A stretch of DNA of 40,925 nucleotides from a virus (lineage: Duplodnaviria > Heunggongvirae > Uroviricota > Caudoviricetes), in the IMG/VR virus record IMGVR_UViG_2671180437_000016, positions 1-40,925 of that record, one strand, 5' to 3'. The notes beneath the pieces were generated by a model. The model was given only the letters and a program-made list of their open reading frames with translations, made no database searches and was not told where the DNA came from. This document shows positions 1,450 to 34,641 of the stretch, piece by piece (positions within the stretch are counted from its first letter, which is position 1; each line of letters opens with the position of its first letter). The position numbers and the translations under genes are program-made.

Positions 1450-2096
1450 GCAGCACGCTCCCGCCCCTGGATGTCTGTTGGTGACAGCGGAGCATTGCTG
1501 AATGCATTTGTTAATCCGCCAATATCCAACGCGTATCCAGGGTGTAGTTGCACTGCCGGGTCTTCGCACTGATTACCCCAAACATCGAAGCCATGAGACG
1601 TCTGGCGGGCGAACAGTTCAATGCGAGAAACATCGCCTAATAATTGCACAAGTTTTTCACGAACGATATCTGGCTTTCTTGAATGCTCAAGCCGCGGTGC
1701 GGTAAATGACTGAACGATCCCTGCATTAATGCGCGTAGGTAGTTTTCCCTTTACCGCAAACAGGCAATCTTCACTATTGGCGCGAGTCATGTGTCCCATA
1801 CCCATAACCAGTTTATCTTGTTGTCGACTACCACATTTTATCCACGTGAAGCCCTTCATCGTCATCAGACGGAATCCCCAGGCTTCAACAACTTTTAGTG
1901 CTTCGAGTGGTTGTGTTGGCACCCACCACATGGCCAACAGACAGTTTTCATCGGCCAAATCCCACACAGGAAGGCGGCAGATATCCAGCACACTCATAAC
2001 CGGATATTTGAAACCGGCACCGCGATTACCATCTGCGGCTTTGTCCCGGTATACCCAGGGTGGATCTGCATAGATTAGTGTGTATTTCTTAGTCAT
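1446..2096 (-). CDS. DNA N6-adenine methyltransferase (MT-A70/Dam-like, orphan)
   Basis: Motif 'LIYADPPW' (DPPW catalytic motif) near N-terminus, 'FDVWGN' near C-terminus; start taken at MTKKY (ATG 2096) with GGGGTGG upstream; no adjacent restriction endonuclease. Confidence 0.8.
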   Translation of the reverse strand: MTKKYTLIYADPPWVYRDKAADGNRGAGFKYPVMSVLDICRLPVWDLADENCLLAMWWVPTQPLEALKVVEAWGFRLMTMKGFTWIKCGSRQQDKLVMGMGHMTRANSEDCLFAVKGKLPTRINAGIVQSFTAPRLEHSRKPDIVREKLVQLLGDVSRIELFARQTSHGFDVWGNQCEDPAVQLHPGYALDIGGLTNAFSNAPLSPTDIQGRERAA

Positions 2097-2355
2097 AAAC
2101 CACCCCACAACATCCTATGCCGCTATAGTCGCCACGGCGAAGGCCGTTACCTTTTGTGATACATTGGTCCCTGCGAACCGCGATCCTTGCACGTTCAACA
2201 TCACCAGAAGCAACATCCATACACTGAAGCCAAAGGTGGGCGGCAATGCGGAACTGCCCTTTTTTCTCTCTTTCAATCGCGCGTTTTTCGATCTCTATCG
2301 CCGCAGGAGTAACGGCAACAACCTTTGAAGGGCTGCGCATTGAAACCTTGTTCAT
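2089..2355 (-). CDS. Hypothetical early protein
   Basis: ORF in early-left operon, stop overlaps methylase start by 8 nt; start chosen at MNKVSMRSP. Confidence 0.45.
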   Translation of the reverse strand: MNKVSMRSPSKVVAVTPAAIEIEKRAIEREKKGQFRIAAHLWLQCMDVASGDVERARIAVRRDQCITKGNGLRRGDYSGIGCCGVVYD

Positions 2356-2497
2356 GTGATATTTTTCAAGTCGGCTTAACTTTCTCACTTAATCCAACCC
2401 TCTCTGAAAATTAATGCCAGCAGATAAAGCCATGCTGAAACAGAGGCCAGGAATAAGTACCATCCTGACCATTTGCTCCAGTGCCTTAGCAGCACAC

Positions 2498-2746
2498 TCA
2501 TGCCGCGTTGCTCACAGGACGATATACACGTTGCTGAACAGGAGGCTTTTTACCCTGGAACTCTGCCGGGCTTGCTGCCTGACGTTCATCAAGCCAACGC
2601 TCAACTTCATCACGGTTCCATGCGCAGCGTTTATCGGTGATATACCAGCGTTTAGGAAATTCCCCTGCGCGCTCCATACGGTCGATAGTGCTCCATGACA
2701 GTGGCACCACCGCCAGGAGTTCTTTCTTACCTAATGCACCTTTCAT
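2498..2746 (-). CDS. AlpA-family transcriptional regulator / excisionase-like protein
   Basis: 82 aa; 'WSTIDRMERAGEFPKRWYITDKRCAWNRDEVERWLDER' resembles AlpA/Xis-type winged-helix proteins that accompany P4-type integrases. Confidence 0.7.
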   Translation of the reverse strand: MKGALGKKELLAVVPLSWSTIDRMERAGEFPKRWYITDKRCAWNRDEVERWLDERQAASPAEFQGKKPPVQQRVYRPVSNAA

Positions 2747-3827: not shown

Positions 3828-4727
3828 TTACTTCATTCTGAAGACGCGTTGTGTCGTTGTTGTTTTGAATTTTTCGAATAACTCAGGGTGTACTGACTGG
3901 AATAGCTTCTGGTCGAATCTGTTGCTGATCTGAGATTTCCATGTGCAGAGCGGCTTTCCGTCCAGGGTCAGGACTGAGTGCTCTTGCATGTACATCTTCA
4001 GCTTCTCTTCTGATATAGCTATTTCTTCTTCCAGTGATTTTCTGCGTGATTTCATGTCTCGTAGATCGTTGAATAGTGCGAGTGCCTTTCCGTCAGCCTC
4101 GATACTTGTCCCGGCATCTTTCTCAAACATCAGCGATACATCGCTTACGCTGGTAGCTTCCGGCGGGTTAAGATTTTTCACTCGGTCCCAGAAAGCGATT
4201 TCTTTTTCTAAGATCGCCTGGATAGTTTCTTCATCACGCTCAACCCGATAGATTCGGAAGTCGTCGCCACCGATAAGCACACCGAAAACGCATACCTGTT
4301 TGTTTGTAACCATCAACCCGTGCATGGCCTGGGCCGTGTAATGCACAGGAATTGCATCTGTCTGGATTTCTCCCCATTCTTTGGCTTTGAACGGACTAAC
4401 TGTTTTGATCTCAATGTTCTCGCCTGACGCTGCTTCTGCATCGATCTCAGCTGCAATAAAATCGTAATCACGGTGGATATAGCGGTTTCCGCGATGAACG
4501 ATTTCCATCCCTGTTTCCTCAGAAAGCAGGTCTATTACGTATGGCTCCATACGCTGGCCACGCGTGAAAACTTTCTGCTTGCTTGGGTCTACTGGTTTGA
4601 CACGTGGCTGGACCTTATCCAGATAAACCTCAAGCGGGGTGCGCCATGGGCTAATTCCAAGAATCCCTGCAACATCGCTTCCTCCGATGTATTTTGTTCT
4701 ATCCATGATTCCAGCGTTCCGCATCAT
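3828..4727 (-). CDS. YqaJ-like viral recombinase exonuclease (PD-(D/E)xK, lambda Exo-like)
   Basis: 299 aa; N-terminal 'RTKYIGGSDVAGILGISPWRTPLEVY' is the YqaJ signature; partner of RecT. Confidence 0.85.
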   Translation of the reverse strand: MMRNAGIMDRTKYIGGSDVAGILGISPWRTPLEVYLDKVQPRVKPVDPSKQKVFTRGQRMEPYVIDLLSEETGMEIVHRGNRYIHRDYDFIAAEIDAEAASGENIEIKTVSPFKAKEWGEIQTDAIPVHYTAQAMHGLMVTNKQVCVFGVLIGGDDFRIYRVERDEETIQAILEKEIAFWDRVKNLNPPEATSVSDVSLMFEKDAGTSIEADGKALALFNDLRDMKSRRKSLEEEIAISEEKLKMYMQEHSVLTLDGKPLCTWKSQISNRFDQKLFQSVHPELFEKFKTTTTQRVFRMK

Positions 4728-5038
4728 GCCGCGTCCCTCTGCCCATCAAGCTGATCCGCCAGATCCCAGCGCGCTATAATTGCCATTGCCTCGCGCCGGT
4801 AGGCATCCATCAGTTCTTCGAACTCAGGGCTGTCTTTAGCAGCCTCCAGCACTTCCTGACGAACGCCTTTGCCTGTTACAACGTCGAAAGTTGAGGACAG
4901 TTGATGAAGTCGGATGCTCTCAATCAGTTCAACTTGTCGGTCATATAGCTGTTCTGACAGGCGGTAGTCCTTGTCGAATGCCAGCATGATTTTTTGAAGA
5001 TTTTTCTGCTGATTAACGTTCATTATCAGCCCTCCCAT
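4724..5038 (-). CDS. Hypothetical early protein
   Basis: 104-aa ORF overlapping exonuclease start (ATGA-type overlap); no recognisable domain. Confidence 0.5.
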   Translation of the reverse strand: MGGLIMNVNQQKNLQKIMLAFDKDYRLSEQLYDRQVELIESIRLHQLSSTFDVVTGKGVRQEVLEAAKDSPEFEELMDAYRREAMAIIARWDLADQLDGQRDAA

Positions 5039-5178
5039 ATCTCGTTATCGTTGGCTACATCGCGAGCTTCTTTGCTGACGAAAGCCCACTTAATGCCTTC
5101 CTGTAAGGTGCGGAACTTCCAGCTCATGAATCCGCATGCAGTAACGCAGTACCAACCGTTGATGATTTTCCACTGCAT
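5026..5178 (-). CDS. Small hypothetical protein (50 aa), first gene of early-left operon
   Basis: ATG at 5178, stop overlaps next gene start; below ORF-track size cutoff; lies directly downstream of operator-bearing promoter region. Confidence 0.3.
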   Translation of the reverse strand: MQWKIINGWYCVTACGFMSWKFRTLQEGIKWAFVSKEARDVANDNEIWEG

Positions 5179-5210
5179 AACTTGTTACCTCGGTCTGTTA
5201 CCTCAGTCTG

Positions 5211-5225
5211 TTACCGTTGAGGTAA
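5211..5225. promoter_or_regulatory. Operator-like palindrome TTACC-GTTGA-GGTAA (OL-type site)
   Basis: Perfect TTACC-N5-GGTAA inverted repeat between repressor 3' end and early-left operon; preceded by tandem 13-bp repeats GTTACCTC(G/A)GTCT at 5184-5209. Confidence 0.6.
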
Positions 5226-5272
5226 TAATTATGCTTATTTGGTTTGGTGTCAATAGATATGAGTTAAAAAAA

Positions 5273-5287
5273 TTACCCGTAAGGTAA
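5273..5287. promoter_or_regulatory. Operator-like palindrome TTACC-CGTAA-GGTAA
   Basis: Perfect TTACC-N5-GGTAA; identical 15-mer recurs at 33500-33514. Confidence 0.6.
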
Positions 5288-5299
5288 TCTATCTGGCAA

Positions 5300-5322
5300 T
5301 AAAAAAGCCGCCATGAGGCGGC
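5300..5322 (-). terminator. Rho-independent terminator after repressor gene
   Basis: Stem GCCGCC/GGCGGC with ATGA loop; run of A on plus strand (U-run on minus) immediately 3' of repressor stop. Confidence 0.6.
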
Positions 5323-5344
5323 TTACTTACTGAAAAATATAGTT

Positions 5345-5929
5345 TTATTGTTTGCTTTTTTCGTTCTGGTTGATGACAAATTCAATGTAACTTTCGATCT
5401 TTGCTTTCTCGGTTTCGGGTAACAATGCGTAGCGCGAGCGGTCATAGTTGATAGTCGCAGGGTCGTGCGGGTGAATCAGTAATTCATAGCCGTGACGCCC
5501 GAATGCGGATGCAACATTCTCCAGGGTGGAAATGGAAACGCTGACCTCATTGTTTAACAGGCGACTGATTGTCACCTGGGCGACGCCGGATGCGCGGTGA
5601 AGTTTTCCCTGCGTTGAAAGGTCGCGGCTTTCGCTCATCCAGCGTTCCAGGTTGTGAGCCGCCAGCTGACCAATGTCGCTTGGGCCGACAGGCTGAAAAC
5701 CTTCCTGAGAAAGCGAGCGATCGATATCAAGCCAGTTACGGGGTTTATTGGCGGCAGCTTCAATTTTTCGCGCAACCTGGTCGCCGATAACCTTCTTGCC
5801 AAGAGCCCAGCGGTTTACCAGATTTGCCTGAGTTCCAAGTTTTTCTGCCATCCGCGTCTGAACACCATTGAATTCACGGTCGATCAAGTCGTTGAGATTT
5901 TGCCTGCGGACGTCCTGGATACTTTTCAT
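5345..5929 (-). CDS. Prophage repressor (CI-like, two HTH regions, no recognisable S24 autocleavage domain)
   Basis: 194 aa, divergent from Cro-like gene across an operator-rich spacer; HTH-like segments 'MAEKLGTQANLVNRWALGKK' and 'ASGVAQVTISRLLNNEVSVSISTLENVA'; no Ala-Gly/Ser...Lys peptidase motif seen. Confidence 0.7.
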   Translation of the reverse strand: MKSIQDVRRQNLNDLIDREFNGVQTRMAEKLGTQANLVNRWALGKKVIGDQVARKIEAAANKPRNWLDIDRSLSQEGFQPVGPSDIGQLAAHNLERWMSESRDLSTQGKLHRASGVAQVTISRLLNNEVSVSISTLENVASAFGRHGYELLIHPHDPATINYDRSRYALLPETEKAKIESYIEFVINQNEKSKQ

Positions 5930-5984
5930 TTTCTGGAAAATCGCCTCATATATGAATCAGTAGATGATTCAATTTAAAGCAATA

Positions 5985-6047
5985 TTACCCAACAGGTAAA
6001 TGCACCTCATAGGTAACTATCCTTGATTTTTGTTACCTTATGGGTGA
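5985..6047. promoter_or_regulatory. Immunity-region operator cluster (three TTACC-N5-GGTAA-type sites) with divergent promoters
   Basis: Sites at 5985-5999 (TTACCCAACAGGTAA), 6002-6016 (GCACCTCATAGGTAA), 6033-6047 (TTACCTTATGGGTGA) between repressor start (5929) and Cro-like start (6084). Confidence 0.65.
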
Positions 6048-6083
6048 ATATTTATTATCTGAAATAAATATCAGGCAATAGCT

Positions 6084-6314
6084 ATGAGCGATAACGGACA
6101 TTTCGATTTCAAAAAGCACTGGCTTGCACTTACTCCGGATGAGCGTGAAGCCTTCGCACAGGAAGCCGGAACGACGAGTCACTATATCCAGACTCACTTA
6201 ACAGGTAAGCGCAAGATGCCAGGTAAGGTATTGATGAATGGGCTTTTTAAAGCCTGTAAAACAAGACAATGGCTGCGCTCAAAAGCAGAACTGGCATACT
6301 TCTTCTACTCATGA
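6084..6314 (+). CDS. Cro-like HTH regulator
   Basis: 76 aa, divergent from repressor; 'EAFAQEAGTTSHYIQTHLTGKRKMPGKVL' resembles Cro/YdaS-type HTH. Confidence 0.65.
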   Translation: MSDNGHFDFKKHWLALTPDEREAFAQEAGTTSHYIQTHLTGKRKMPGKVLMNGLFKACKTRQWLRSKAELAYFFYS

Positions 6315-6336
6315 TATCCAGCTACAACCCTCTGTA

Positions 6337-6358
6337 GACCGCCACCCGGCGGTCTTTT
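6337..6358 (+). terminator. Rho-independent terminator after Cro-like gene
   Basis: Stem GACCGCC/GGCGGTC, loop ACCC, followed by TTTT. Confidence 0.6.
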
Positions 6359-6369
6359 CATATCTATTC

Positions 6370-6384
6370 GTACCTCAAAGGTAA
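6370..6384. promoter_or_regulatory. Operator-like palindrome GTACC-TCAAA-GGTAA
   Basis: One-mismatch member of the TTACC-N5-GGTAA family, followed by AACC-N6-GGTT inverted repeat and T-run (6390-6413). Confidence 0.5.
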
Positions 6385-6464
6385 TAAAAAACCAAATCTG
6401 GTTGATCTTTTTTTTGTGTCAGCACAAAATAACCGTAATCCCAATACTAATGACAGGGCTTACC

Positions 6465-6665
6465 ATGGAAATCATTACACGTATTGATGCCGCAAAGCGC
6501 GGACTTAAACGCTACTACACCGGAAAAACATGTAAGCACGGACATGACAGTGAACGCTGGGTTTACAACGGACACTGTGTTGAGTGCACCATGGAATCAA
6601 ACCGTCGCATCAGGGCAGAGATTAAGCAGATCATGATTAATTCCTCCCCACAACATTCAAGCTGA
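6465..6665 (+). CDS. Small Cys/His-rich (zinc-finger-like) protein in the cII position
   Basis: 66 aa from internal ATG of track ORF 6402..6665; 'CKHGHDSERWVYNGHCVEC'; function not recognisable. Confidence 0.4.
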   Translation: MEIITRIDAAKRGLKRYYTGKTCKHGHDSERWVYNGHCVECTMESNRRIRAEIKQIMINSSPQHSS

Positions 6666-6680
6666 TAGCGGAGATTAATC

Positions 6681-7496
6681 ATGAGCAGACATGCAACAGA
6701 TTGGGCCTGGGAGACAGATCCAGGTAGCTCGTCATTAAAGCTCATACTGCTCTCGATGGCTGACAGAGCCGATGAATATAACCTCTGCTACCCCAGCATA
6801 GAACGCCTCGTTAAAGACACTTGCCTGAATAAAAAAACCGTACAGGCCGGGCTTATATCGCTCATGAAAATGGGGCTTATTTCAGATACCGGAGAGAGAA
6901 AGGGTGCGACGAAAAGAGTGCGGGTTTTCTCTCTTAATATAACCAAAAACGGGAACATTAAAGGCAACCAGGAAGGGGAGAATGAACCCGAAAACGGTAA
7001 TGTTCCCGAAAACGGGAATATACCCAAAAACGGGATGTTGAATGATCCCAAAAACGGGATGTTGAATGATCCCAAAAACGGGATCCAGAACCAGTCATAT
7101 AACCAGTCATTTAACCAAGAGAGGGAGAGCAGGACAAAAACCGGGGATTCTGTGCCTCATGACCCCGGCGCAAACAACGCCGTGATGAATAACTTTGTTC
7201 CTCATGGTGGGCCAGGGCAATTAGGCAAATTTGTCATGCATGAACAATGGCAGCCATCAGATGACTTTCTTCGGAAAAGCTCATTGCAGGGAATCTACCT
7301 GGACAGTCTGCCAACGGCACAGGAACTTGCAGAGTTCAGAATTTACTGGATGGCTGAGGGTAAGGCATACCATCAGGCACAGTGGGAGCAGAAGCTGGCA
7401 AGGAGGCTGCAGATTAGCAGACAGAAGCAATCAACATTACCTGATAACAACGTTCCGCACTGGAACAGTCCTGAAGCATGGGAGGATTTCTTGTGA
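6681..7496 (+). CDS. Replication initiator (lambda O-like, N-terminal winged-helix) containing internal iterons
   Basis: 271 aa; N-terminal 'LKLILLSMADRADEYNLCYPSIERLVKDTCLNKKTVQAGLISLMKMGLIS'; repetitive 'ENGNVPENGNIPKNGMLNDPKNGMLNDPKNG' encoded by DNA direct repeats. Confidence 0.75.
   Translation: MSRHATDWAWETDPGSSSLKLILLSMADRADEYNLCYPSIERLVKDTCLNKKTVQAGLISLMKMGLISDTGERKGATKRVRVFSLNITKNGNIKGNQEGENEPENGNVPENGNIPKNGMLNDPKNGMLNDPKNGIQNQSYNQSFNQERESRTKTGDSVPHDPGANNAVMNNFVPHGGPGQLGKFVMHEQWQPSDDFLRKSSLQGIYLDSLPTAQELAEFRIYWMAEGKAYHQAQWEQKLARRLQISRQKQSTLPDNNVPHWNSPEAWEDFL
6987..7082. repeat. Iteron-like direct repeats (putative phage origin of replication) inside initiator gene
   Basis: Five copies of CCC(G/A)AAAACGG(G/T) starting at 6987, 7005, 7023, 7047, 7071; 24-bp unit CCCAAAAACGGGATGTTGAATGAT exactly duplicated; followed by AACCAGTCAT x2 (7089-7110). 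Confidence 0.65.
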
Positions 7497-8278
7497 ACAA
7501 CGTTTTTACCGCGATACAAAACCGTGACGGAGAAGCCCTTTCTCGCATGTCAGGTTATGAGCATCAGTACACCAACAATGACAACGTGGTGAACATGTCA
7601 GCAGAGAGGCTTGTTGATGCCCTTTTCAAACAGCTGAAACAACTGTTTCCGGCGGCAGTGGTAACCAACCTGAAGACGCCAGAGCAGGAAGTTGCTGCAA
7701 AACAGCAGTGGATTGCTGCGTTTGCCGAAGGGGGGATCCGAACCCGTGAACAGGTTTCTGCTGGTATGCGCCACGCCCGCGCCAGTGAATCTCCGTTCTG
7801 GCCGTCGCCAGGACAATTTATCAAGTGGTGCAAAGACAGCAAGATGGTTCTTGGCGTCACCATTGACGATGTGATGGCGGAGTTTCACCGGTACAGCAAG
7901 GAAAAAAGTTTATATCCTGGTGGTCCCGAAAGATTCCCGTGGCGACATCCGGTTATGTACTGGGTCGTATGTGATACCCGCCGTGCAATGTATCAGCGCC
8001 AGCTTAGCGAGATTGAGGTTGAGAAACACGCGCGCAGGCTGCTCGATGATTGGGCGAAAAAGGTGGCTTCCGGACAGCAGATACCCGATCCGGTGATCAG
8101 CATACAGGCAAAGCCAGAGCCCATGAGTACACCTCCGGACACAGGGAGAGACGTTTACCATCCACCAGGGCGAAGTTTCGGGTGCATGCCTAACGCCGCC
8201 ACCCTTGGGGGAATAACACCGGCGCAGTGGCTGATGGAGGAATACAGGCGGGGAAAGGCGGCAGGATTTATCAAGTAA
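7493..8278 (+). CDS. Replication protein P-like (helicase loader)
   Basis: Follows initiator gene; start taken at GTG 7493 (GGAGGA SD 6 nt upstream, GTGA overlap with initiator stop; ATG 7478 is the alternative); 'FWPSPGQFIKWC' segment reminiscent of lambda P family. Confidence 0.65.
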   Translation: MNNVFTAIQNRDGEALSRMSGYEHQYTNNDNVVNMSAERLVDALFKQLKQLFPAAVVTNLKTPEQEVAAKQQWIAAFAEGGIRTREQVSAGMRHARASESPFWPSPGQFIKWCKDSKMVLGVTIDDVMAEFHRYSKEKSLYPGGPERFPWRHPVMYWVVCDTRRAMYQRQLSEIEVEKHARRLLDDWAKKVASGQQIPDPVISIQAKPEPMSTPPDTGRDVYHPPGRSFGCMPNAATLGGITPAQWLMEEYRRGKAAGFIK

Positions 8279-12364: not shown

Positions 12365-12407
12365 GCATGGTACTATTACCACAACGGTAACTATTACCAC
12401 GGTGGTT

Positions 12408-13004
12408 ATGATGCCTGCTGAACCTAAAACCTATAAACGCAAATCAACGCAATTTAAGCCACTAACAGCAATGCAGGAGGCTTATTGCCAGTCATACATC
12501 AAAACGCCTGAAAACCAGACTCAGGCAGCGATTAACGCAGGATTCTCCCCAAATACAGCGGCAGTTAAAGCCAGTGTAATGATGCGCGATGAACGTATTC
12601 AAAAACGGATTGCCGAGTTGATGGAGGAGCGCAACAAACGAATGCGCGTCAGTGCTGATTACGTTCTCATGCGCCTGGTGGAGATCGACCAGATGGACGT
12701 GATCGACATCCTCAACGACGATGGGAGCCTTAAGCCAATCCGCGAGTGGCCGAAAATCTGGCGCACTACGCTTAGCGGCTTTGATCTGTCATCGACCATC
12801 ATGAACATGAACGAGGATTCGATAGAGACAATCCTCAAAAAAATTAAATGGCCTGACAAGGTGAAGAACCTCGAACTGATTGGTAAGCACGTCGACGTCA
12901 ACGCATTCAAAGAACGCTTGGATGTTAATGTGAATGTGACAATTGCTGATCGCATAGCAGCAGCCAGGAAGCGACTCAAAGAACGTCAGGATGGCAATCA
13001 GTGA
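12408..13004 (+). CDS. Terminase small subunit
   Basis: Start at MMPAEPK (ATG 12408, GGTGG SD); the track ORF start at 12330 would read through the terminator hairpin; directly precedes and overlaps large terminase. Confidence 0.6.
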   Translation: MMPAEPKTYKRKSTQFKPLTAMQEAYCQSYIKTPENQTQAAINAGFSPNTAAVKASVMMRDERIQKRIAELMEERNKRMRVSADYVLMRLVEIDQMDVIDILNDDGSLKPIREWPKIWRTTLSGFDLSSTIMNMNEDSIETILKKIKWPDKVKNLELIGKHVDVNAFKERLDVNVNVTIADRIAAARKRLKERQDGNQ

Positions 13005-14476
13005 CAGATACAGCGTTATCTCCTGAAGAGCAGTTAATCGAGGATATTGCAGGGTTCACTCACGATCCGCTTGGCTATGCCCTCTATGCGTTCCCTTGGG
13101 GGGAAGAGGGGACTGAACTGGCACATGCTACCGGCCCACGTCAGTGGCAGGCTGATGCGTTCCGAGAGATACGTGATCACCTGCAGAATCCAGAGACGCG
13201 CTATCAGCCGCTTATGCTGGCACGCGCTTCTGGTCACGGTATTGGTAAATCCGCATTCATCTCAATGCTGATCAACTGGGGCATGTCCACTTGCGAGGAT
13301 TGTAAGGTCGTGGTGACCGCCAACACCGACAACCAGCTACGAACGAAGACCTGGCCGGAAATTATCAAGTGGTCGAACCTTGCTATCACGAAAGACTGGT
13401 TTACCTGTACCGCTACCGCGATGTACAGCAATGACCCTGGGCACGACAAGCGGTGGCGGGCTGACGCAATACCCTGGTCTGAGCACAACACTGAGGCGTT
13501 CGCCGGACTACACAACGAGCGCAAACGCATCATCGTGGTGTTTGATGAAGCGTCGAACATTGCGGATCTGGTGTGGGAAGTTGCCGAGGGGGCGCTTACG
13601 GACGAAGACACTGAGATTATCTGGGTGGCGTTCGGAAACCCGACGCGTAATACCGGACGTTTCCGCGAATGTTTCCGCAAATATAAACACCGCTGGAAAA
13701 CTGCGCAGATTGACAGCCGGACGGTGGAAGGCACTAACAAACAGCAGTTGCAGAAATGGGTTGATGACTACGGGGAAGACAGCGACTTCGTTAAAATCCG
13801 TGTGCGCGGCATATTCCCTGATGCATCTGAATTGCAGTTTATCCCTACCGGCCTTACTGACGAGGCAATGAAACGGGTGGTAACTGCTGCGCAGGTGGCA
13901 CATGCTCCGGTGATAATCGGCGTTGACCCGGCATACTCCGGCGTTGATGACGCTGTGATATACCTGCGGCAGGGGCTGCACAGTAAGGTGCTGTGGACTG
14001 GCAACAAGACCACTGACGATCTGATTATGGCGAAGCGCATCGCTGACTTTGAAGACCAGTATCAGGCTGACGCGGTATTCATCGACTTCGGTTACGGAAC
14101 CGGTTTGAAGTCAATCGGTGATGGCTGGGGACGTACATGGCAACTTGTTCCGTTCGGTGGCGCGTCTACTGACCCGCAGATGCTCAACAAGCGTGGGGAG
14201 ATGTTCAACTCATGTAAGACATGGCTGAGGCTGGGCGGTATGCTGGATGACCAGGAAACAGCGGACGACCTGTCGACGGCAGAGTACAAAGTTCGCGTGG
14301 ACGGTAAAATCGTTATCGAACCGAAGGAAGATATCAAAGAACGACTTGGGCGTTCGCCGGGGAAAGGCGATGCGCTATTGCTGACGTTTGCTTTCCCTGT
14401 GTCGAAGCGCCTGCGAATTCCCGGTCAGCAGAACCAGCAAGGCAAGGCCATCACAGATTACGACCCGTTTGCGTGA
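13001..14476 (+). CDS. Terminase large subunit
   Basis: 491 aa; Walker-A-like 'ASGHGIGKS', nuclease-domain 'VDPAYSGVDDAVIY'; GTG start overlapping terS stop. Confidence 0.85.
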   Translation: MTDTALSPEEQLIEDIAGFTHDPLGYALYAFPWGEEGTELAHATGPRQWQADAFREIRDHLQNPETRYQPLMLARASGHGIGKSAFISMLINWGMSTCEDCKVVVTANTDNQLRTKTWPEIIKWSNLAITKDWFTCTATAMYSNDPGHDKRWRADAIPWSEHNTEAFAGLHNERKRIIVVFDEASNIADLVWEVAEGALTDEDTEIIWVAFGNPTRNTGRFRECFRKYKHRWKTAQIDSRTVEGTNKQQLQKWVDDYGEDSDFVKIRVRGIFPDASELQFIPTGLTDEAMKRVVTAAQVAHAPVIIGVDPAYSGVDDAVIYLRQGLHSKVLWTGNKTTDDLIMAKRIADFEDQYQADAVFIDFGYGTGLKSIGDGWGRTWQLVPFGGASTDPQMLNKRGEMFNSCKTWLRLGGMLDDQETADDLSTAEYKVRVDGKIVIEPKEDIKERLGRSPGKGDALLLTFAFPVSKRLRIPGQQNQQGKAITDYDPFA

Positions 14477-14477
14477 T

Positions 14478-15218
14478 TTATTGCTTATTTTTCACGGCTT
14501 CAGCAATCATTCTCTCAGCCTGTGATGTATATGTTTTTCGCAAGGGTTCATGGCCCATATGCAATACGATACTTTCCTTTTCTTTTTCCTTTAATTCTTG
14601 TATGAGATTATTTATTTTGGCCTCCCTATCTTCAAGCATTCTGGCGGACTTTTCTGCCTCAATCTTTAACGCTGCAGCCACTGATTGCATGTTTTCCAGC
14701 TTCTTATTCAATTCCAAAACCTTATCGGAGAGCCTATCTCTTTCCGACGTTAGCTCACCCATCCTGGCCTGTGACTCCGTAATTCTTTCCTTCATAGCCT
14801 GTATGTCTTTTTCGGCGCCAGTCTTAACTTTGTCGTATGTCACATCGTGCTTTGCCTTCAGGCGCTGCAGGCGTGTGGCGCGATGAATGCGCTTGGCCTT
14901 CCGGTGGTTCTCTATCGAATCGTAATTATCAAGAGGTTTGGCTTGCCACTTTGAAATCACGTTGTTGATCCAGGGCATGCCGCCGCACAGGATTATTGCT
15001 GAAACACATGGGAATGCTAATACCGTTTTCCAACTGCTATTGCTGGAAATGTAGGTGATCTTGTCGATGATGCTGGAGTCGCTGAGGAGTAAGTATAAAA
15101 TCGACTTCCAGTTAAAGGCGCACCATGACAGTGCGAACGCTCCAAACACTGGATTTCTGACCCTTTGCGAAGCGGTATTAACGGTTGAAGATAGGTATTC
15201 TTTAAGTGATTCAAGCAT
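14478..15218 (-). CDS. Moron: predicted membrane-anchored coiled-coil protein of unknown function
   Basis: 246 aa on opposite strand inside structural region; visibly AT-rich; two hydrophobic segments ('VFGAFALSWCAFNW', 'VLAFPCVSAIILCGG') then long charged coiled-coil-like tail; own operator site upstream. Confidence 0.6.
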   Translation of the reverse strand: MLESLKEYLSSTVNTASQRVRNPVFGAFALSWCAFNWKSILYLLLSDSSIIDKITYISSNSSWKTVLAFPCVSAIILCGGMPWINNVISKWQAKPLDNYDSIENHRKAKRIHRATRLQRLKAKHDVTYDKVKTGAEKDIQAMKERITESQARMGELTSERDRLSDKVLELNKKLENMQSVAAALKIEAEKSARMLEDREAKINNLIQELKEKEKESIVLHMGHEPLRKTYTSQAERMIAEAVKNKQ

Positions 15219-15248
15219 GTCCAGGCCCTTTTAGGTTTTTTTCTGATT

Positions 15249-15263
15249 CTACCTTTAAGGTAA
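15249..15263. promoter_or_regulatory. Operator-like palindrome CTACC-TTTAA-GGTAA upstream of moron
   Basis: One-mismatch family member 31-45 nt upstream of moron start codon. Confidence 0.5.
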
Positions 15264-15360
15264 TCTTCGGTCATTATGAAAAACGTATCCCTATGAGGGG
15301 ATAATGTCGTTGATATCCTCTGATGAGGATAAAACAAAGCCAGCTTATCGGCTGGCTGTT

Positions 15361-15374
15361 TGTGACGTGTCACG
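15361..15374. promoter_or_regulatory. 14-bp near-palindrome TGTGACGTGTCACG (copy 2, one substitution)
   Basis: Differs from 12285-12298 by a single central A to G change. Confidence 0.45.
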
Positions 15375-15416
15375 ACATTAAAATCCATCGAATTCGTATT
15401 TCATGATTCACACCTT

Positions 15417-15440
15417 AAAAAAATGCCCGGTGAACCGGGC
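15417..15440 (-). terminator. Rho-independent terminator downstream of tRNA
   Basis: Stem GCCCGG/CCGGGC, loop TGAA, A-run on plus strand (U-run on minus); a second hairpin AGCCAGC/GCTGGCT at 15331-15364 has A- and T-rich flanks. Confidence 0.55.
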
Positions 15441-15603
15441 GAACTGGAAGCAATGAGTTATGCCTTCCGTGGCTGTACGGGTTTACAGCATGAAGTCATC
15501 GCAATGGCGTCCTGCTGTAAAAAGGGCGGTGATAGTCCTTCAATGGAAACCATCACCGCCAAGCACCTGGAACTTCTGGCATCACGGTCCTTAGGCGTGA
15601 TTC

Positions 15604-15680
15604 TGGCGTGGCATGCAGGATTCGAACCTGCGACCAACCGCTTAGAAGGCGGTTGCTCTGTCCAACTGAGCTAATGCCAC
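15604..15680 (-). tRNA. tRNA-Arg (anticodon UCU)
   Basis: 77-nt cloverleaf read on minus strand: acceptor GTGGCAT/ATGCCAC, D-arm GCTC...GAGC, anticodon stem ACCGC/GCGGT with loop CTTCTAA (anticodon TCT), T-arm GCAGG-TTCGAAT-CCTGC, discriminator G + CCA. Confidence 0.85.
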
Positions 15681-16107: not shown

Positions 16108-16314
16108 ATGTGCATGGGTAGCTCACCATCAGTGCCTGCAACACCAGAAGTTCAGGCAGCACCACAGGAGCAGGATGCCGCCGTTGTTGATGCCCGCGAC
16201 GAAGAAACACGTCGCCGTCGCGCTGCTGCTGGTCGTAGTTCTACGCTGCTTACCGGTTCTCAGGGCGACACATCAACCGCTAATACCAGCGGTAAAACGC
16301 TGCTTGGTCAGTAA
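16108..16314 (+). CDS. Small hypothetical protein (68 aa) upstream of portal
   Basis: Translation initiation region ACGGAGTCATTGATATG is near-identical to that of the portal gene; Q/A/T-rich product. Confidence 0.4.
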   Translation: MCMGSSPSVPATPEVQAAPQEQDAAVVDARDEETRRRRAAAGRSSTLLTGSQGDTSTANTSGKTLLGQ

Positions 16315-16328
16315 CCGGAGTCATTGAA

Positions 16329-18008
16329 ATGGCGGAAACAACTAAAGAGCGATTGAACAAACAGTTCGCACAACTTGAAAGCGAGCGTCAGTCGTTCGAG
16401 CCGCACTGGCGCGAGTTGAGTGATTACATCAACCCGCGTGGTTCCCGCTTTCTGACTTCTGAGGCCAACCGTAACGATCGGCGCAATACACGCATTATTG
16501 ATTCGACCGGGACTATGGCGGCGCGCACTCTCGCCAGCGGCATGATGTCAGGCATCACAAGCCCCGCGCGTCCGTGGTTTCGCCTGGCTACGCCAGATCC
16601 TGAAATGATGGATTATGGCCCTGTTAAGTTGTGGCTTGAGGCGGTGCAGAACCGCATGAACGATATGTTCAATAAGTCGAATCTCTATCAGTCGCTGCCG
16701 CAGTTATACGGAAGCCTCGGCACATACAGCACCGGTGCAATGGCGGTACTGGAGGATGATGAGGACATCATTCGCACAATGCCATTCCCGATAGGCAGTT
16801 ACTACCTGGCTAACTCACCTCGTGGCAGTGTTGACACCTGTTTTCGCAAGTTCTCTATGACTGTTCGTCAGCTTGTTCAGGAGTTCGGGCTAAATAACGT
16901 CAGCGAATCCGTAAAAAGCATGTGGGAAAGCGGCACCTACGAGAAGTGGATTGACGTGATGCATTCGGTTTACCCGAACATTGACCGCGATACATCGAAG
17001 CTGGATAGCAAGAACAAGCCATTCAAATCGGTTTATTACGAGGTTGGTGGCGATAACGACAAGTTGTTGCGTGAGTCCGGATTCGATGAGTTTCCAATTA
17101 TGGCTCCGCGCTGGGAAGTTAACGGCGAAGATGTTTATGGATCATCATGCCCGGGTATGCTGGCGCTTGGACCTGTTAAGGCATTGCAGCTTCTCCAGAA
17201 GCGCAAGTCGCAGTTGATTGATAAAGCCACCAATCCGCCGATGGTTGCTCCGACTTCCCTCAAGAATCAGCGCGCCTCCCTTCTTCCTGGCGACATCACG
17301 TATATCGATCAGATTACTGGTCAGGATGGCTTCAGGCCTGCTTATCTGGTTAACCCCAGTACAGCAGATTTGGTGGCAGACATTCAGGACACTCGTCAAA
17401 TCATTAACAGCGCCTACTTTGTCGATCTGTTCATGATGTTGCAGAACATCAATACCCGCTCGATGCCTGTTGAAGCGGTGATCGAAATGAAAGAAGAAAA
17501 ACTTCTGATGTTGGGGCCGGTTCTGGAGCGTCTGAACGACGAATGTCTTAATCCTCTCATTGACCGCGCTTTCTCGATGATGGTGCGTAAAAACATGCTG
17601 CCGCCACCGCCTGACACGATGGAAGGCATGCCCCTGAAGGTCGAATACATTTCCGTCATGGCTCAGGCGCAGAAGTCTATCGGCCTGTCCAGTCTGGCGT
17701 CCACGGTTAACTTCATTGGTCAACTTGCGCAAGCGAAACCAGAAGCTCTCGACAAACTCAACGTTGATCAGGCGATCGATGCATTCGCTGATATGTCCGG
17801 AGTGTCTCCAACCGTCATTGTTCCGCAGGAACAGGTTGAGCAGGCTCGCCAGCAACGGGCACAGCAGCAACAGCAGCAACAAATGATGGCGATGGGGATG
17901 GCGGCGGCACAGGGGGCCAAGACGCTAAGCGAAGCTAAAACTTCGGATCCGAGTGTTTTGTCAGCTATGGCGAATGCAGTTAGTGGTCAGGGTGGGCAAT
18001 CACAATGA
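16329..18008 (+). CDS. Portal (head-to-tail connector) protein
   Basis: 559 aa, acidic, downstream of terminase and upstream of scaffold and capsid; size and position as in T7-like/epsilon15-like podoviruses. Confidence 0.8.
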   Translation: MAETTKERLNKQFAQLESERQSFEPHWRELSDYINPRGSRFLTSEANRNDRRNTRIIDSTGTMAARTLASGMMSGITSPARPWFRLATPDPEMMDYGPVKLWLEAVQNRMNDMFNKSNLYQSLPQLYGSLGTYSTGAMAVLEDDEDIIRTMPFPIGSYYLANSPRGSVDTCFRKFSMTVRQLVQEFGLNNVSESVKSMWESGTYEKWIDVMHSVYPNIDRDTSKLDSKNKPFKSVYYEVGGDNDKLLRESGFDEFPIMAPRWEVNGEDVYGSSCPGMLALGPVKALQLLQKRKSQLIDKATNPPMVAPTSLKNQRASLLPGDITYIDQITGQDGFRPAYLVNPSTADLVADIQDTRQIINSAYFVDLFMMLQNINTRSMPVEAVIEMKEEKLLMLGPVLERLNDECLNPLIDRAFSMMVRKNMLPPPPDTMEGMPLKVEYISVMAQAQKSIGLSSLASTVNFIGQLAQAKPEALDKLNVDQAIDAFADMSGVSPTVIVPQEQVEQARQQRAQQQQQQQMMAMGMAAAQGAKTLSEAKTSDPSVLSAMANAVSGQGGQSQ

Positions 18009-33580: not shown

Positions 33581-34267
33581 TCAGAAGAACCCTGCTTTGT
33601 CGTTGATATACTCCGCGTGGGTCTGGATATCACGCAGGCATTTGCTCACACCGACGATGTAGCAGAACATGGTGGTCAGCTCCGCCGCCGCGCCCGATAC
33701 GTCGTGCCCGTCTTCCTGTAACTGGTTCAGCAGATTCATCAGCAGTGAGTTCTCCGTCAGGCCGAGAACACCAGACGGCGAGTGAATCAGACTGCGGTAG
33801 CCGGGCTTTAGTGGGGCGCTGTAGGTTTTGTTCTCTATCTTCATTGCCTGCATCACTGCTGATGCTGTGGCGTTGGCTACCTGGTCGGCAACCATCTTTA
33901 TGCGTTCTTCTTGCGGGAGCGAGTTTTTAATGTAACTTCCGGTGCGGCGGATCTGAGGAAGAACCTCACCTGTAACCCATTTACGAAAGCGGTATGGGAT
34001 AGTGCCTGGTGTCACCGCATCGCGGCAGCGGAGGATCAGTGTGTAGAGGCCTGACTCGTTGATAATATTGGTTTCGCCTTGACGGCCTAAGTTAAATTTA
34101 GCCCTTTCATCATCATCAAGAGATTTTATTGACATAGTGGGGTTTGTCAGTTGAAGAGCTTTAATAACGTCTTTGGCAACAAACCAAGGATTTCCATCAA
34201 TAACAATGGCTCGAATGGTTGCTTCTGATTCAAAATGAAAAACAGATGGGGTTACGTTAGCAGTCAT
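33581..34267 (-). CDS. Antirepressor (BRO-N domain N-terminus, Ant-like C-terminus)
   Basis: Start at MTANVTPSVF (ATG 34267, SD AAAGGTGA); 'VFHFESEATIRAIVIDGNPWFVAKDVIKALQ' is a BRO-N signature; C-terminus homologous to 35413..35670 product. Confidence 0.7.
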   Translation of the reverse strand: MTANVTPSVFHFESEATIRAIVIDGNPWFVAKDVIKALQLTNPTMSIKSLDDDERAKFNLGRQGETNIINESGLYTLILRCRDAVTPGTIPYRFRKWVTGEVLPQIRRTGSYIKNSLPQEERIKMVADQVANATASAVMQAMKIENKTYSAPLKPGYRSLIHSPSGVLGLTENSLLMNLLNQLQEDGHDVSGAAAELTTMFCYIVGVSKCLRDIQTHAEYINDKAGFF

Positions 34268-34533
34268 AGTGATCACCTTTGTAGTTAGGTTAATCACCAC
34301 TACCGACGCCAATCGGTTGGTGGTGAACTGTGCAGGGTTGGCGTAACCGGCTACAAAGGACCCGGCGCACCTTTCGGTGCCCCCACACAGCCCACCATAG
34401 AATAGGTGCGCTTTACACATAAAAAAACCGCTTATGCGGCATATGTGCCCCTGTAGTAATCCGGGACGCCAATCCCGGCACTGGATTTTGCCAGTACCCG
34501 ATTACTATGGCACAAGAGGAGTGCAATGTAAAT

Positions 34534-34626: not shown

Positions 34627-34641
34627 TTACCTTTAAGGTAA
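34627..34641. promoter_or_regulatory. Operator-like palindrome TTACC-TTTAA-GGTAA
   Basis: Perfect site 20 nt upstream of ATG 34662. Confidence 0.55.

Follow-up and report, generated by a model that had tools for sequence, protein, structure and literature searches.

A mobile accessory cassette of a Uetakevirus prophage joins a membrane-anchored coiled-coil protein to a putative operator of the resident repressor

Temperate-phage morons such as HK97 gp15 and the P22 sieA/sieB loci are extra DNA in opposite orientation and of lower GC content, with their own promoter and a small inner-membrane product, and they are exchanged among unrelated backbones. Other accessory genes gather in hotspots, an example being the P2 interval between gpA and gpQ, which is the old/tin anti-phage hotspot (Rousset et al. 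2022, PMC9122126). Dispersed-operator regulons, as those of P1 C1 and of the SPC32H/epsilon15 Rep, combine one repressor with many scattered operators, and abortive-infection (Abi) effectors with two transmembrane (TM) segments, among them SLATT-type proteins, RexB and T4 Imm, have a hairpin that could perturb the membrane. Here we describe a gene that shares features with each of these systems and differs from each. It lies on the minus strand of a 40,925-nucleotide stretch of Caudoviricetes DNA (IMG/VR virus record IMGVR_UViG_2671180437_000016, positions 1 to 40,925), which we call the window, between the genes for the large terminase (TerL) and the portal. Its anatomy is well supported: a mobile cassette in which a conserved promoter with the operator of the resident repressor precedes the gene for a membrane-anchored coiled-coil protein. 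What this protein does is a matter of weighing several readings, of which we tentatively favour a role in phage-versus-phage conflict.

The packaging region of the window is about 97% identical to that of the phiV10/epsilon15-type temperate podoviruses (genus Uetakevirus), and positions 14440-15300 are 100% identical to prophages of four pig E. coli isolates, UTME-9, -10, -12 and -14. In this region the original prediction, made from the sequence of the window, had described a minus-strand gene that interrupts an otherwise plus-strand packaging block. The open reading frame (ORF) is indeed found there, with the terminase genes TerS and TerL on one side and the portal gene on the other; it converges with TerL, and the two stop codons are 1 nt apart (TerL stop at 14476). 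A four-way DNA alignment of the window with phiV10, TL-2011b and phiv142-3 defines an insert of about 0.8 kb comprising the gene, its promoter and its operator, and the last few TerL codons, from about 14466, are unlike those of the relatives. Between the flanks of about 97% identity the contents of this slot vary. phiV10 carries p03, an unrelated gene of the N4 gp49/Sf6 gp66 family, TL-2011b carries gp23, another unrelated gene, EC.W1-9 has a 41%-identical allele of the phrog_4780-type gene, and phiv142-3 has no gene at all. The claim of an accessory insert is thereby confirmed, and the many alternative cargoes between conserved flanks recall the P2 hotspot, from which the window's copy differs in phage type and slot. 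The other bound of the slot is a conserved backbone neighbour, the minus-strand gene for tRNA-Arg(UCU), which the original prediction had overlooked.

The distribution among complete E. coli genomes points the same way. TerL of the window is found in 519 of 5,426 such genomes, DNA similar to the N-terminal coding region of the family in only 62, and the exact allele of the window in just 5. What occupies the variable slot between TerL and tRNA-Arg in this Uetakevirus prophage is an accessory cassette subject to horizontal exchange. It is also AT-richer than its neighbours, as first noticed by eye, if modestly so: its GC content of 0.445 compares with 0.545 for TerL, 0.52 for the portal gene and 0.473 for TerS, and is only 0.045 under the window mean of 0.49. 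Two E. coli records of 41,027 bp that carry a family allele, NZ_CP079771.1 and NZ_CP079768.1, are Uetakevirus-sized and filed as plasmids; they may be extrachromosomal or mis-classified phage genomes.

How is such a cassette controlled? A promoter consensus scan finds a sigma-70-type promoter upstream of the gene with 9 of 12 matches. When upstream regions of homologues were compared (69 IMG/VR loci plus a few others, giving 37 distinct sequences), the pattern NTGACN-17-TANNNT recurred in 33 of the 37, always with a spacer of exactly 17 nt, and the conserved promoter ended 25-29 nt before the ATG. The spacer between the -35 and -10 elements is filled by a palindrome that overlaps the -10 element by 2 nt. 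This is the TTACC-type site earlier placed 31-45 nt upstream of the start, and it proves to be a perfect palindrome, TACCTTTAAGGTA, at 15250-15262, 32-44 nt from the ATG. A promoter-like site on the plus strand (15276-15305) matched at chance level and was rejected.

The palindrome belongs to a family of sites spread over the whole window. Its core, TACC-N5-GGTA, occurs 13 times against about 0.6 expected from shuffled sequences, and other spacings of the two half-sites occur 0-3 times each; the extended consensus is ATTACC-N5-GGTAAT. Almost all transcription units have such a core in front of them. Three sites (5212, 5274, 5986) lie around the repressor gene; others come before the replication genes (6371), the resolvase (8317, 8379), TerS (12377), the portal operon (16004), the ant/C4 region (33501, 34535, 34628) and the tailspike (35748), the one at 15250 being that of the accessory gene. 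The latter has the same core sequence as site 34628-34640. An identical 17-mer motif is annotated in the epsilon15 RefSeq record as 'protein_bind: repressor, lysogeny', at equivalent positions before TerS, portal, tailspike and resolvase and beside the repressor gene, and epsilon15 and BUCT711 hold 12-13 copies each. Like the SPC32H/epsilon15 regulon, the window thus has the motif at a promoter together with its own cognate repressor gene. The DNA-binding N-terminus of this repressor, Rep, is conserved with epsilon15 and the Klebsiella phage BUCT711 despite an overall identity of about 44%. According to a secondary source (PMC9638917), the Rep of SPC32H is tetrameric when it binds its palindromic sites. 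Rep is the predicted trans-acting factor for the operator of the cassette.

Some further observations concern this regulon. In two cases, 5212/5274 and 8317/8379, neighbouring operators are separated by exactly 62 bp, and a 62-63-bp pairing is likewise seen in epsilon15 and BUCT711; a single Rep tetramer may span both members of such a pair. For TerS, the phiV10 annotation takes the longest ORF, with its start at TTG 12330, and TL-2011b and phiv142-3 use an ATG at about 12411; the operator at 12377 is just upstream of the latter and inside the extension of the longer ORF, and the shorter gene model is the more likely one. On the minus strand, 34316-34402 and 34421-34497 match the Rfam C4 antisense RNA (79.5 bits) and isrK RNA (73.5 bits) upstream of the antirepressor gene ant (33581-34420, minus strand), which resembles an immI module of the P1/P7 type. 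SPC32H has a LexA-controlled small Ant instead, unlike the C4/isrK/ant arrangement of the window.

With a Rep operator between its -35 and -10 elements the gene should be silent in the lysogen and expressed once the phage infects or is induced, and this predicted repression weakens the idea of lysogenic conversion. The cassette had been credited with an operator of its own. It does have its own conserved promoter; the operator, by its motif, is that of the prophage repressor. Could the gene nevertheless be a classical moron, expressed in the lysogen, which would gain superinfection exclusion, abortive infection or some trait affecting its surface or fitness? Its opposite strand, lower GC content, own promoter and variable slot would all suit that role, and a single operator may give only weak repression. 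The full palindrome nevertheless persists in 58 of the 59 loci whose backbone is that of a Uetakevirus, compared with 7 of 12 in other backbones (Fisher p 3e-4, for loci that are phylogenetically non-independent), which is hard to reconcile with expression in the lysogen. Lambdoid prophages have one half-site in degenerate form: the left half reads TATC in L080, CACC in L010 and AACC in L015, and in KO-TP1 it is the right half that reads GATA. In those contexts expression is therefore probably constitutive and tolerated, which again speaks for a moron. On balance we regard the classical moron as unlikely.

Since the palindrome is kept in Uetakevirus loci and degenerate in lambdoid prophages, the operator is most simply read as one that would work, and be selected for, only in the presence of Rep. 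This sets the cassette apart from the known dispersed-operator regulons, as here the operator sits within a mobile element and decays in phages without Rep. To our knowledge an operator embedded in a mobile accessory cassette has so far been undescribed for Uetakevirus-type phages. Phage hotspots are well known to hold accessory cassettes, and dispersed Rep operators are already annotated in epsilon15; what appears to be new is the protein family with its architecture, the placing of an operator within a mobile cassette, and the decay of that operator once the cassette has been transferred.

A second feature thought to mark an insulated moron was a pair of hairpin terminators upstream of the gene. 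Both hairpins are present and stable, but they are backbone elements, which lie outside the insert, recur in phiV10, TL-2011b and phiv142-3 and are thus kept even where the slot holds no gene; as terminators of the cassette they were rejected. The hairpin at 15338-15357 is annotated in phiV10 as the terminator after TerL, and the one at 15425-15440, a GC stem followed by seven T, is found just downstream of the minus-strand tRNA-Arg gene. Neither serves the gene at its 3' end: its own transcript runs into TerL, and no downstream terminator was detected, the 148 nt past the stop codon being devoid of significant structure (z +0.66). The window's gene differs in this from known morons, as it does in a promoter that holds the resident Rep operator and is probably silent in the lysogen, and the missing terminator adds to the case against a classical moron. 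Because the TerL terminator lies beyond it, the gene occupies untranslated 3' sequence of the terS-terL operon, and TerL transcripts must cross all of it in antisense. At the right edge of the insert, directly upstream of the -35 element, a smaller hairpin with a T-run (15286-15303) is found, and a stretch of the form ...GGGATAC/A-TTTTTCATAATGAC... is repeated upstream of homologues, one of them in a lambdoid prophage. This hairpin is possibly an upstream insulator that moves along with the cassette.

The protein itself has the two N-terminal hydrophobic segments and the charged coiled-coil tail that were first seen in its translation. Segment 1 (residues 24-46) is weak, with a 19-residue Kyte-Doolittle mean (KD19) of 1.0-1.3 and a family mean of 1.3-1.5, segment 2 (residues 61-92) is clear, with KD19 up to 1.95, and averaging over 105 diverse homologues strengthens both. 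An AlphaFold2 (AF2) model built on the 105-sequence alignment (pLDDT 92.7) has helices at residues 2-21, 23-35, 37-45 and 50-60 and a single helix at 63-244, so that the second hydrophobic helix continues as one helix of about 180 residues. The tail, in which K, E, A, L and R abound, shows a hydrophobic period of 3.5 residues. Among 62 representatives the mean pairwise identity is 78% for residues 1-160 and 16% for the rest. Such a sharp break between module and tail is typical of the specificity regions of conflict proteins, a role that the tail may share. Conserved residues are R19, P23, G26, S31-W32, N36-W37, P70 and P82. The net charge averaged over the family is +0.9 at the N-terminus, -1.1 in the loop and +2.3 after the second helix; a hairpin with both ends inside (N-in/C-in) and a cytoplasmic stalk therefore fits, and in this predicted topology the protein is similar to the two-TM Abi effectors.

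Sequence and structure searches were extensive. The protein matches phrog_4780, a family of unknown function, over residues 1-219 (E 1.1e-88). Pfam (E<=0.1), NCBIfam and PADLOC searches with the window's protein returned coiled-coil noise alone (PEARLI-4, SMC, LmuB, JetC), and with 105 diverse members neither Pfam (E<=0.001) nor PADLOC gave any match to the N-terminal domain. PADLOC-DB v2.0.0 produced, for the window's protein and these members together, only weak coiled-coil matches to LmuB, JetC and PbeC, and in lying outside this collection the family differs from the cargo of the P2 hotspot. At the same Pfam thresholds no match was found to T4 Imm, SieB, SLATT or holin families; this absence, and a coiled-coil stalk of 150 residues that is foreign to them, separate the protein from the two-TM Abi effectors. 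It also differs from known superinfection-exclusion (Sie) proteins, to none of which sequence or fold similarity was found, Pfam at E<=0.1 giving coiled-coil noise alone. Foldseek comparison of both AF2 models with PDB and BFVD found nothing with E below 0.3, and a profile search against PDB sequences hit coiled coils alone. A holin or spanin was rejected as well: the place is wrong, a separate lysis cassette lies at about 37.8-39.7 kb, and there is no family match.

The family extends far beyond this slot. Its N-terminal 165 residues match 1,507 clusters at 50% identity (E<=1e-3), and there are 204 close homologues, of 56-100% identity, which come from Escherichia, Klebsiella, Enterobacter, Citrobacter, Cronobacter and Salmonella and are all annotated as hypothetical, as are the clusters of the remote members throughout. 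A profile re-search of the protein database returned close relatives only, two remote members used as queries found no matches among viral contigs, and a literature search on phiV10/epsilon15 operators, Uetakevirus exclusion genes and nin hotspots yielded no study of the family. Is the gene real at all? That it might be a spurious ORF or a decaying pseudogene, as one could suspect from a functional annotation found nowhere, we consider virtually excluded: it is full-length, its N-terminal domain is strongly conserved in hundreds of genomes as well as in the clusters just mentioned, start, promoter and operator are conserved, and the structure is predicted with high confidence. A plus-strand ORF at 14473-14886 was rejected as antisense within the conserved gene.

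Most relatives occupy the same Uetakevirus slot, including one on a contig binned as Advenella. Some lambdoid prophages carry a relative on the opposite strand, placed either between P and ninB or at another point of the nin region, and just downstream of the copies on six lambdoid-type IMG/VR contigs with nin or replication genes (L010, L012-L015 and L021) a fragment of a Uetakevirus-type TerL C-terminus is found, 26-150 residues long and 42-80% identical. These fragments look like a remnant of cassette transfer out of the Uetakevirus slot. Two loci hold tandem paralogues. In a Cronobacter Uetakevirus (L087) they lie at 6083-6964 and 7001-7807 and are divergent (hhalign probability 99.9; about 26-28% identity), and in a P2-like Providencia prophage (L079) two family members that are 28% identical stand at 4218-4964 and 5001-5942 between gpA and gpQ, as cargo of the hotspot mentioned above. 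Such tandem copies may be heteromeric partners or stacked specificities. In Erwinia amylovora (L092) a distant member (hhalign probability 99.0) is directly downstream of an AbiTii-domain gene, and the pair is shared with an IMG/VR contig (L093) at 56-59% identity. This pairing recalls the AbiT system, from which most contexts of the family differ in having no partner gene; no AbiTii partner was found beside the window's copy, only in this distant subfamily. The L092 and L093 pairs also adjoin a 99%-conserved invertase of the Hin/Gin type.

These settings also bear on two explanations outside exclusion. As a member of the Rep regulon along with the replication, packaging and tail promoters, the gene could encode a non-essential helper of the lytic cycle or a membrane scaffold for host takeover, acting in cell division, lysis timing or the tethering of replication or assembly. 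Its anchor and coiled coil recall the membrane organiser p16.7 of phi29. Such a helper is, though, missing or replaced in phages that are otherwise about 97% identical, and the hypervariable tail and the presence of members at accessory loci of at least three unrelated phage backbones disfavour a backbone-specific partner; we find this explanation improbable. The early, repressor-controlled expression that is predicted on derepression, together with a hypervariable specificity region, could instead belong to an anti-defence protein directed at membrane-associated host or prophage defences, with a stalk that tracks its targets, and accessory hotspots do carry counter-defence genes too. Yet no library searched contained a similar anti-defence protein, and the adjacency to AbiTii and the P2 old/tin hotspot point to defence instead; we think this role quite unlikely.

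We return to conflict between phages. Family members at known anti-phage loci fit a superinfection-exclusion or abortive-infection role, and a repressor-regulated membrane effector that acts on other phages by exclusion or abortive infection is, to us, a nearly even possibility. Rep, bound as a dimer or tetramer between the -35 and -10 elements, would block RNA polymerase and keep the gene off in the lysogen; transcription would start when Rep is absent, as in a fresh infection, or inactivated by the antirepressor or by induction, and would later be opposed by convergent terminase transcription. In the inner membrane the protein would form a hairpin of two helices, N-in and C-in, the second of which would extend into the cytoplasm as a coiled-coil stalk of about 150 residues. 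The conserved membrane module may then be anchor or effector and the hypervariable stalk would provide specificity, the targets being competing phages. Of the original reading as a gene of lysogenic conversion, superinfection exclusion or abortive infection, the accessory cassette and a possible exclusion or abortive-infection role endure; terminators of its own and a moron expressed in the lysogen find no support.

Several points weigh against an effector in phage conflict. The known genes rexAB, sieA/B, old, tin and bstA are expressed in the lysogen, and a gene silenced by the repressor would not protect it, so that exclusion would have to take place during lytic growth or through leaky repression. 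Rep binding at the cassette is deduced from motif identity. No homology to characterised proteins was found, and PADLOC gave SMC-type coiled-coil noise alone for the window's protein and the 105 members. The associations with the hotspot and with AbiTii come from few loci, some from one or two. Finally, the weakly hydrophobic segment 1, with a conserved N-W in its middle, could be a re-entrant helix, in which case the stalk would be periplasmic. A broader version of the conflict reading, which we consider doubtful, is a widespread single-gene anti-phage system whose membrane module would kill or exclude and whose coiled coil would sense proteins of the invader, in some lineages arranged in tandem or paired with AbiTii; the Uetakevirus copy would have come into the Rep regulon and be deployed on derepression only.

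The coordinates of the cassette and its surroundings are collected in Table 1. One further call near the slot deserves mention: an 83-aa ORF on the plus strand (15423-15674) overlaps both the tRNA-Arg(UCU) gene of the minus strand and the terminator of that gene. The records of phiV10 (p04), TL-2011b (gp24) and EC.W1-9 list equivalents of this ORF as hypothetical proteins, and it is probably a spurious gene call copied between records.

Table 1. Features of the cassette, its surroundings and two distant loci (positions in the window unless another locus is named)
Feature	Position	Strand	Details
Insert, approximate	14466..15285	.	about 0.8 kb; gene, promoter and operator; four-way DNA alignment
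Accessory gene	14478..15218	-	ORF, 246 aa, ATG start; phrog_4780, uncharacterised family
Conserved two-helix membrane module	14739-15218	-	residues 1-160
Hypervariable coiled-coil tail	14481-14738	-	residues 161-246
Sigma-70-type promoter, predicted	15246..15274	-	-35 ATGACC (15274-15269), 17-nt spacer, -10 TAGAAT (15251-15246)
Rep operator, putative	15248..15264	.	17-mer TCTACCTTTAAGGTAAT; core palindrome TACC-N5-GGTA at 15250-15262
Small hairpin and T-run	15286..15303	-	CGTTTTTCA; terminator-like scan; -7.2 kcal/mol, z -2.1
Backbone hairpin	15338..15357	.	TerL operon terminator on plus strand, terminator-like on minus strand; fold energy -13.5 to -15 kcal/mol
Backbone terminator of tRNA-Arg gene	15425..15440	-	GCCCGGTTCACCGGGC then T7; -12.7 kcal/mol
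tRNA-Arg(UCU)	15604..15680	-	ARAGORN; Rfam tRNA, 73.3 bits
Prophage repressor Rep	5345..5929	-	PDB 5D50 (SPC32H repressor), E 3.5e-42; phrog_8
TerS	12330/12411-13004	+	
Large terminase TerL	13001..14476	+	convergent with accessory gene
Small conserved ORF	16108-16314	+	
T7-type portal	16329-18008	+	PF12236, E 1.9e-187
AbiTii/member pair, L092	4959-5912 with 6001-6810		adjoins serine recombinase
AbiTii/member locus, L093 (IMG/VR contig)	10-813, 935-1837, 1930-2715		

What would follow for phage biology? Should the protein not be a conflict gene, the window adds an ordinary hypothetical accessory gene to the Uetakevirus slot. If it is one, a large family of about 1,500 clusters, outside Pfam, NCBIfam and PADLOC and with no match in PDB or BFVD, would join the phage conflict genes, and the boundary between module and stalk would offer a ready design for specificity swaps. 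It would also mean that a mobile accessory cassette can come under the control of a resident repressor, and that its operator decays once it moves into phages without Rep.

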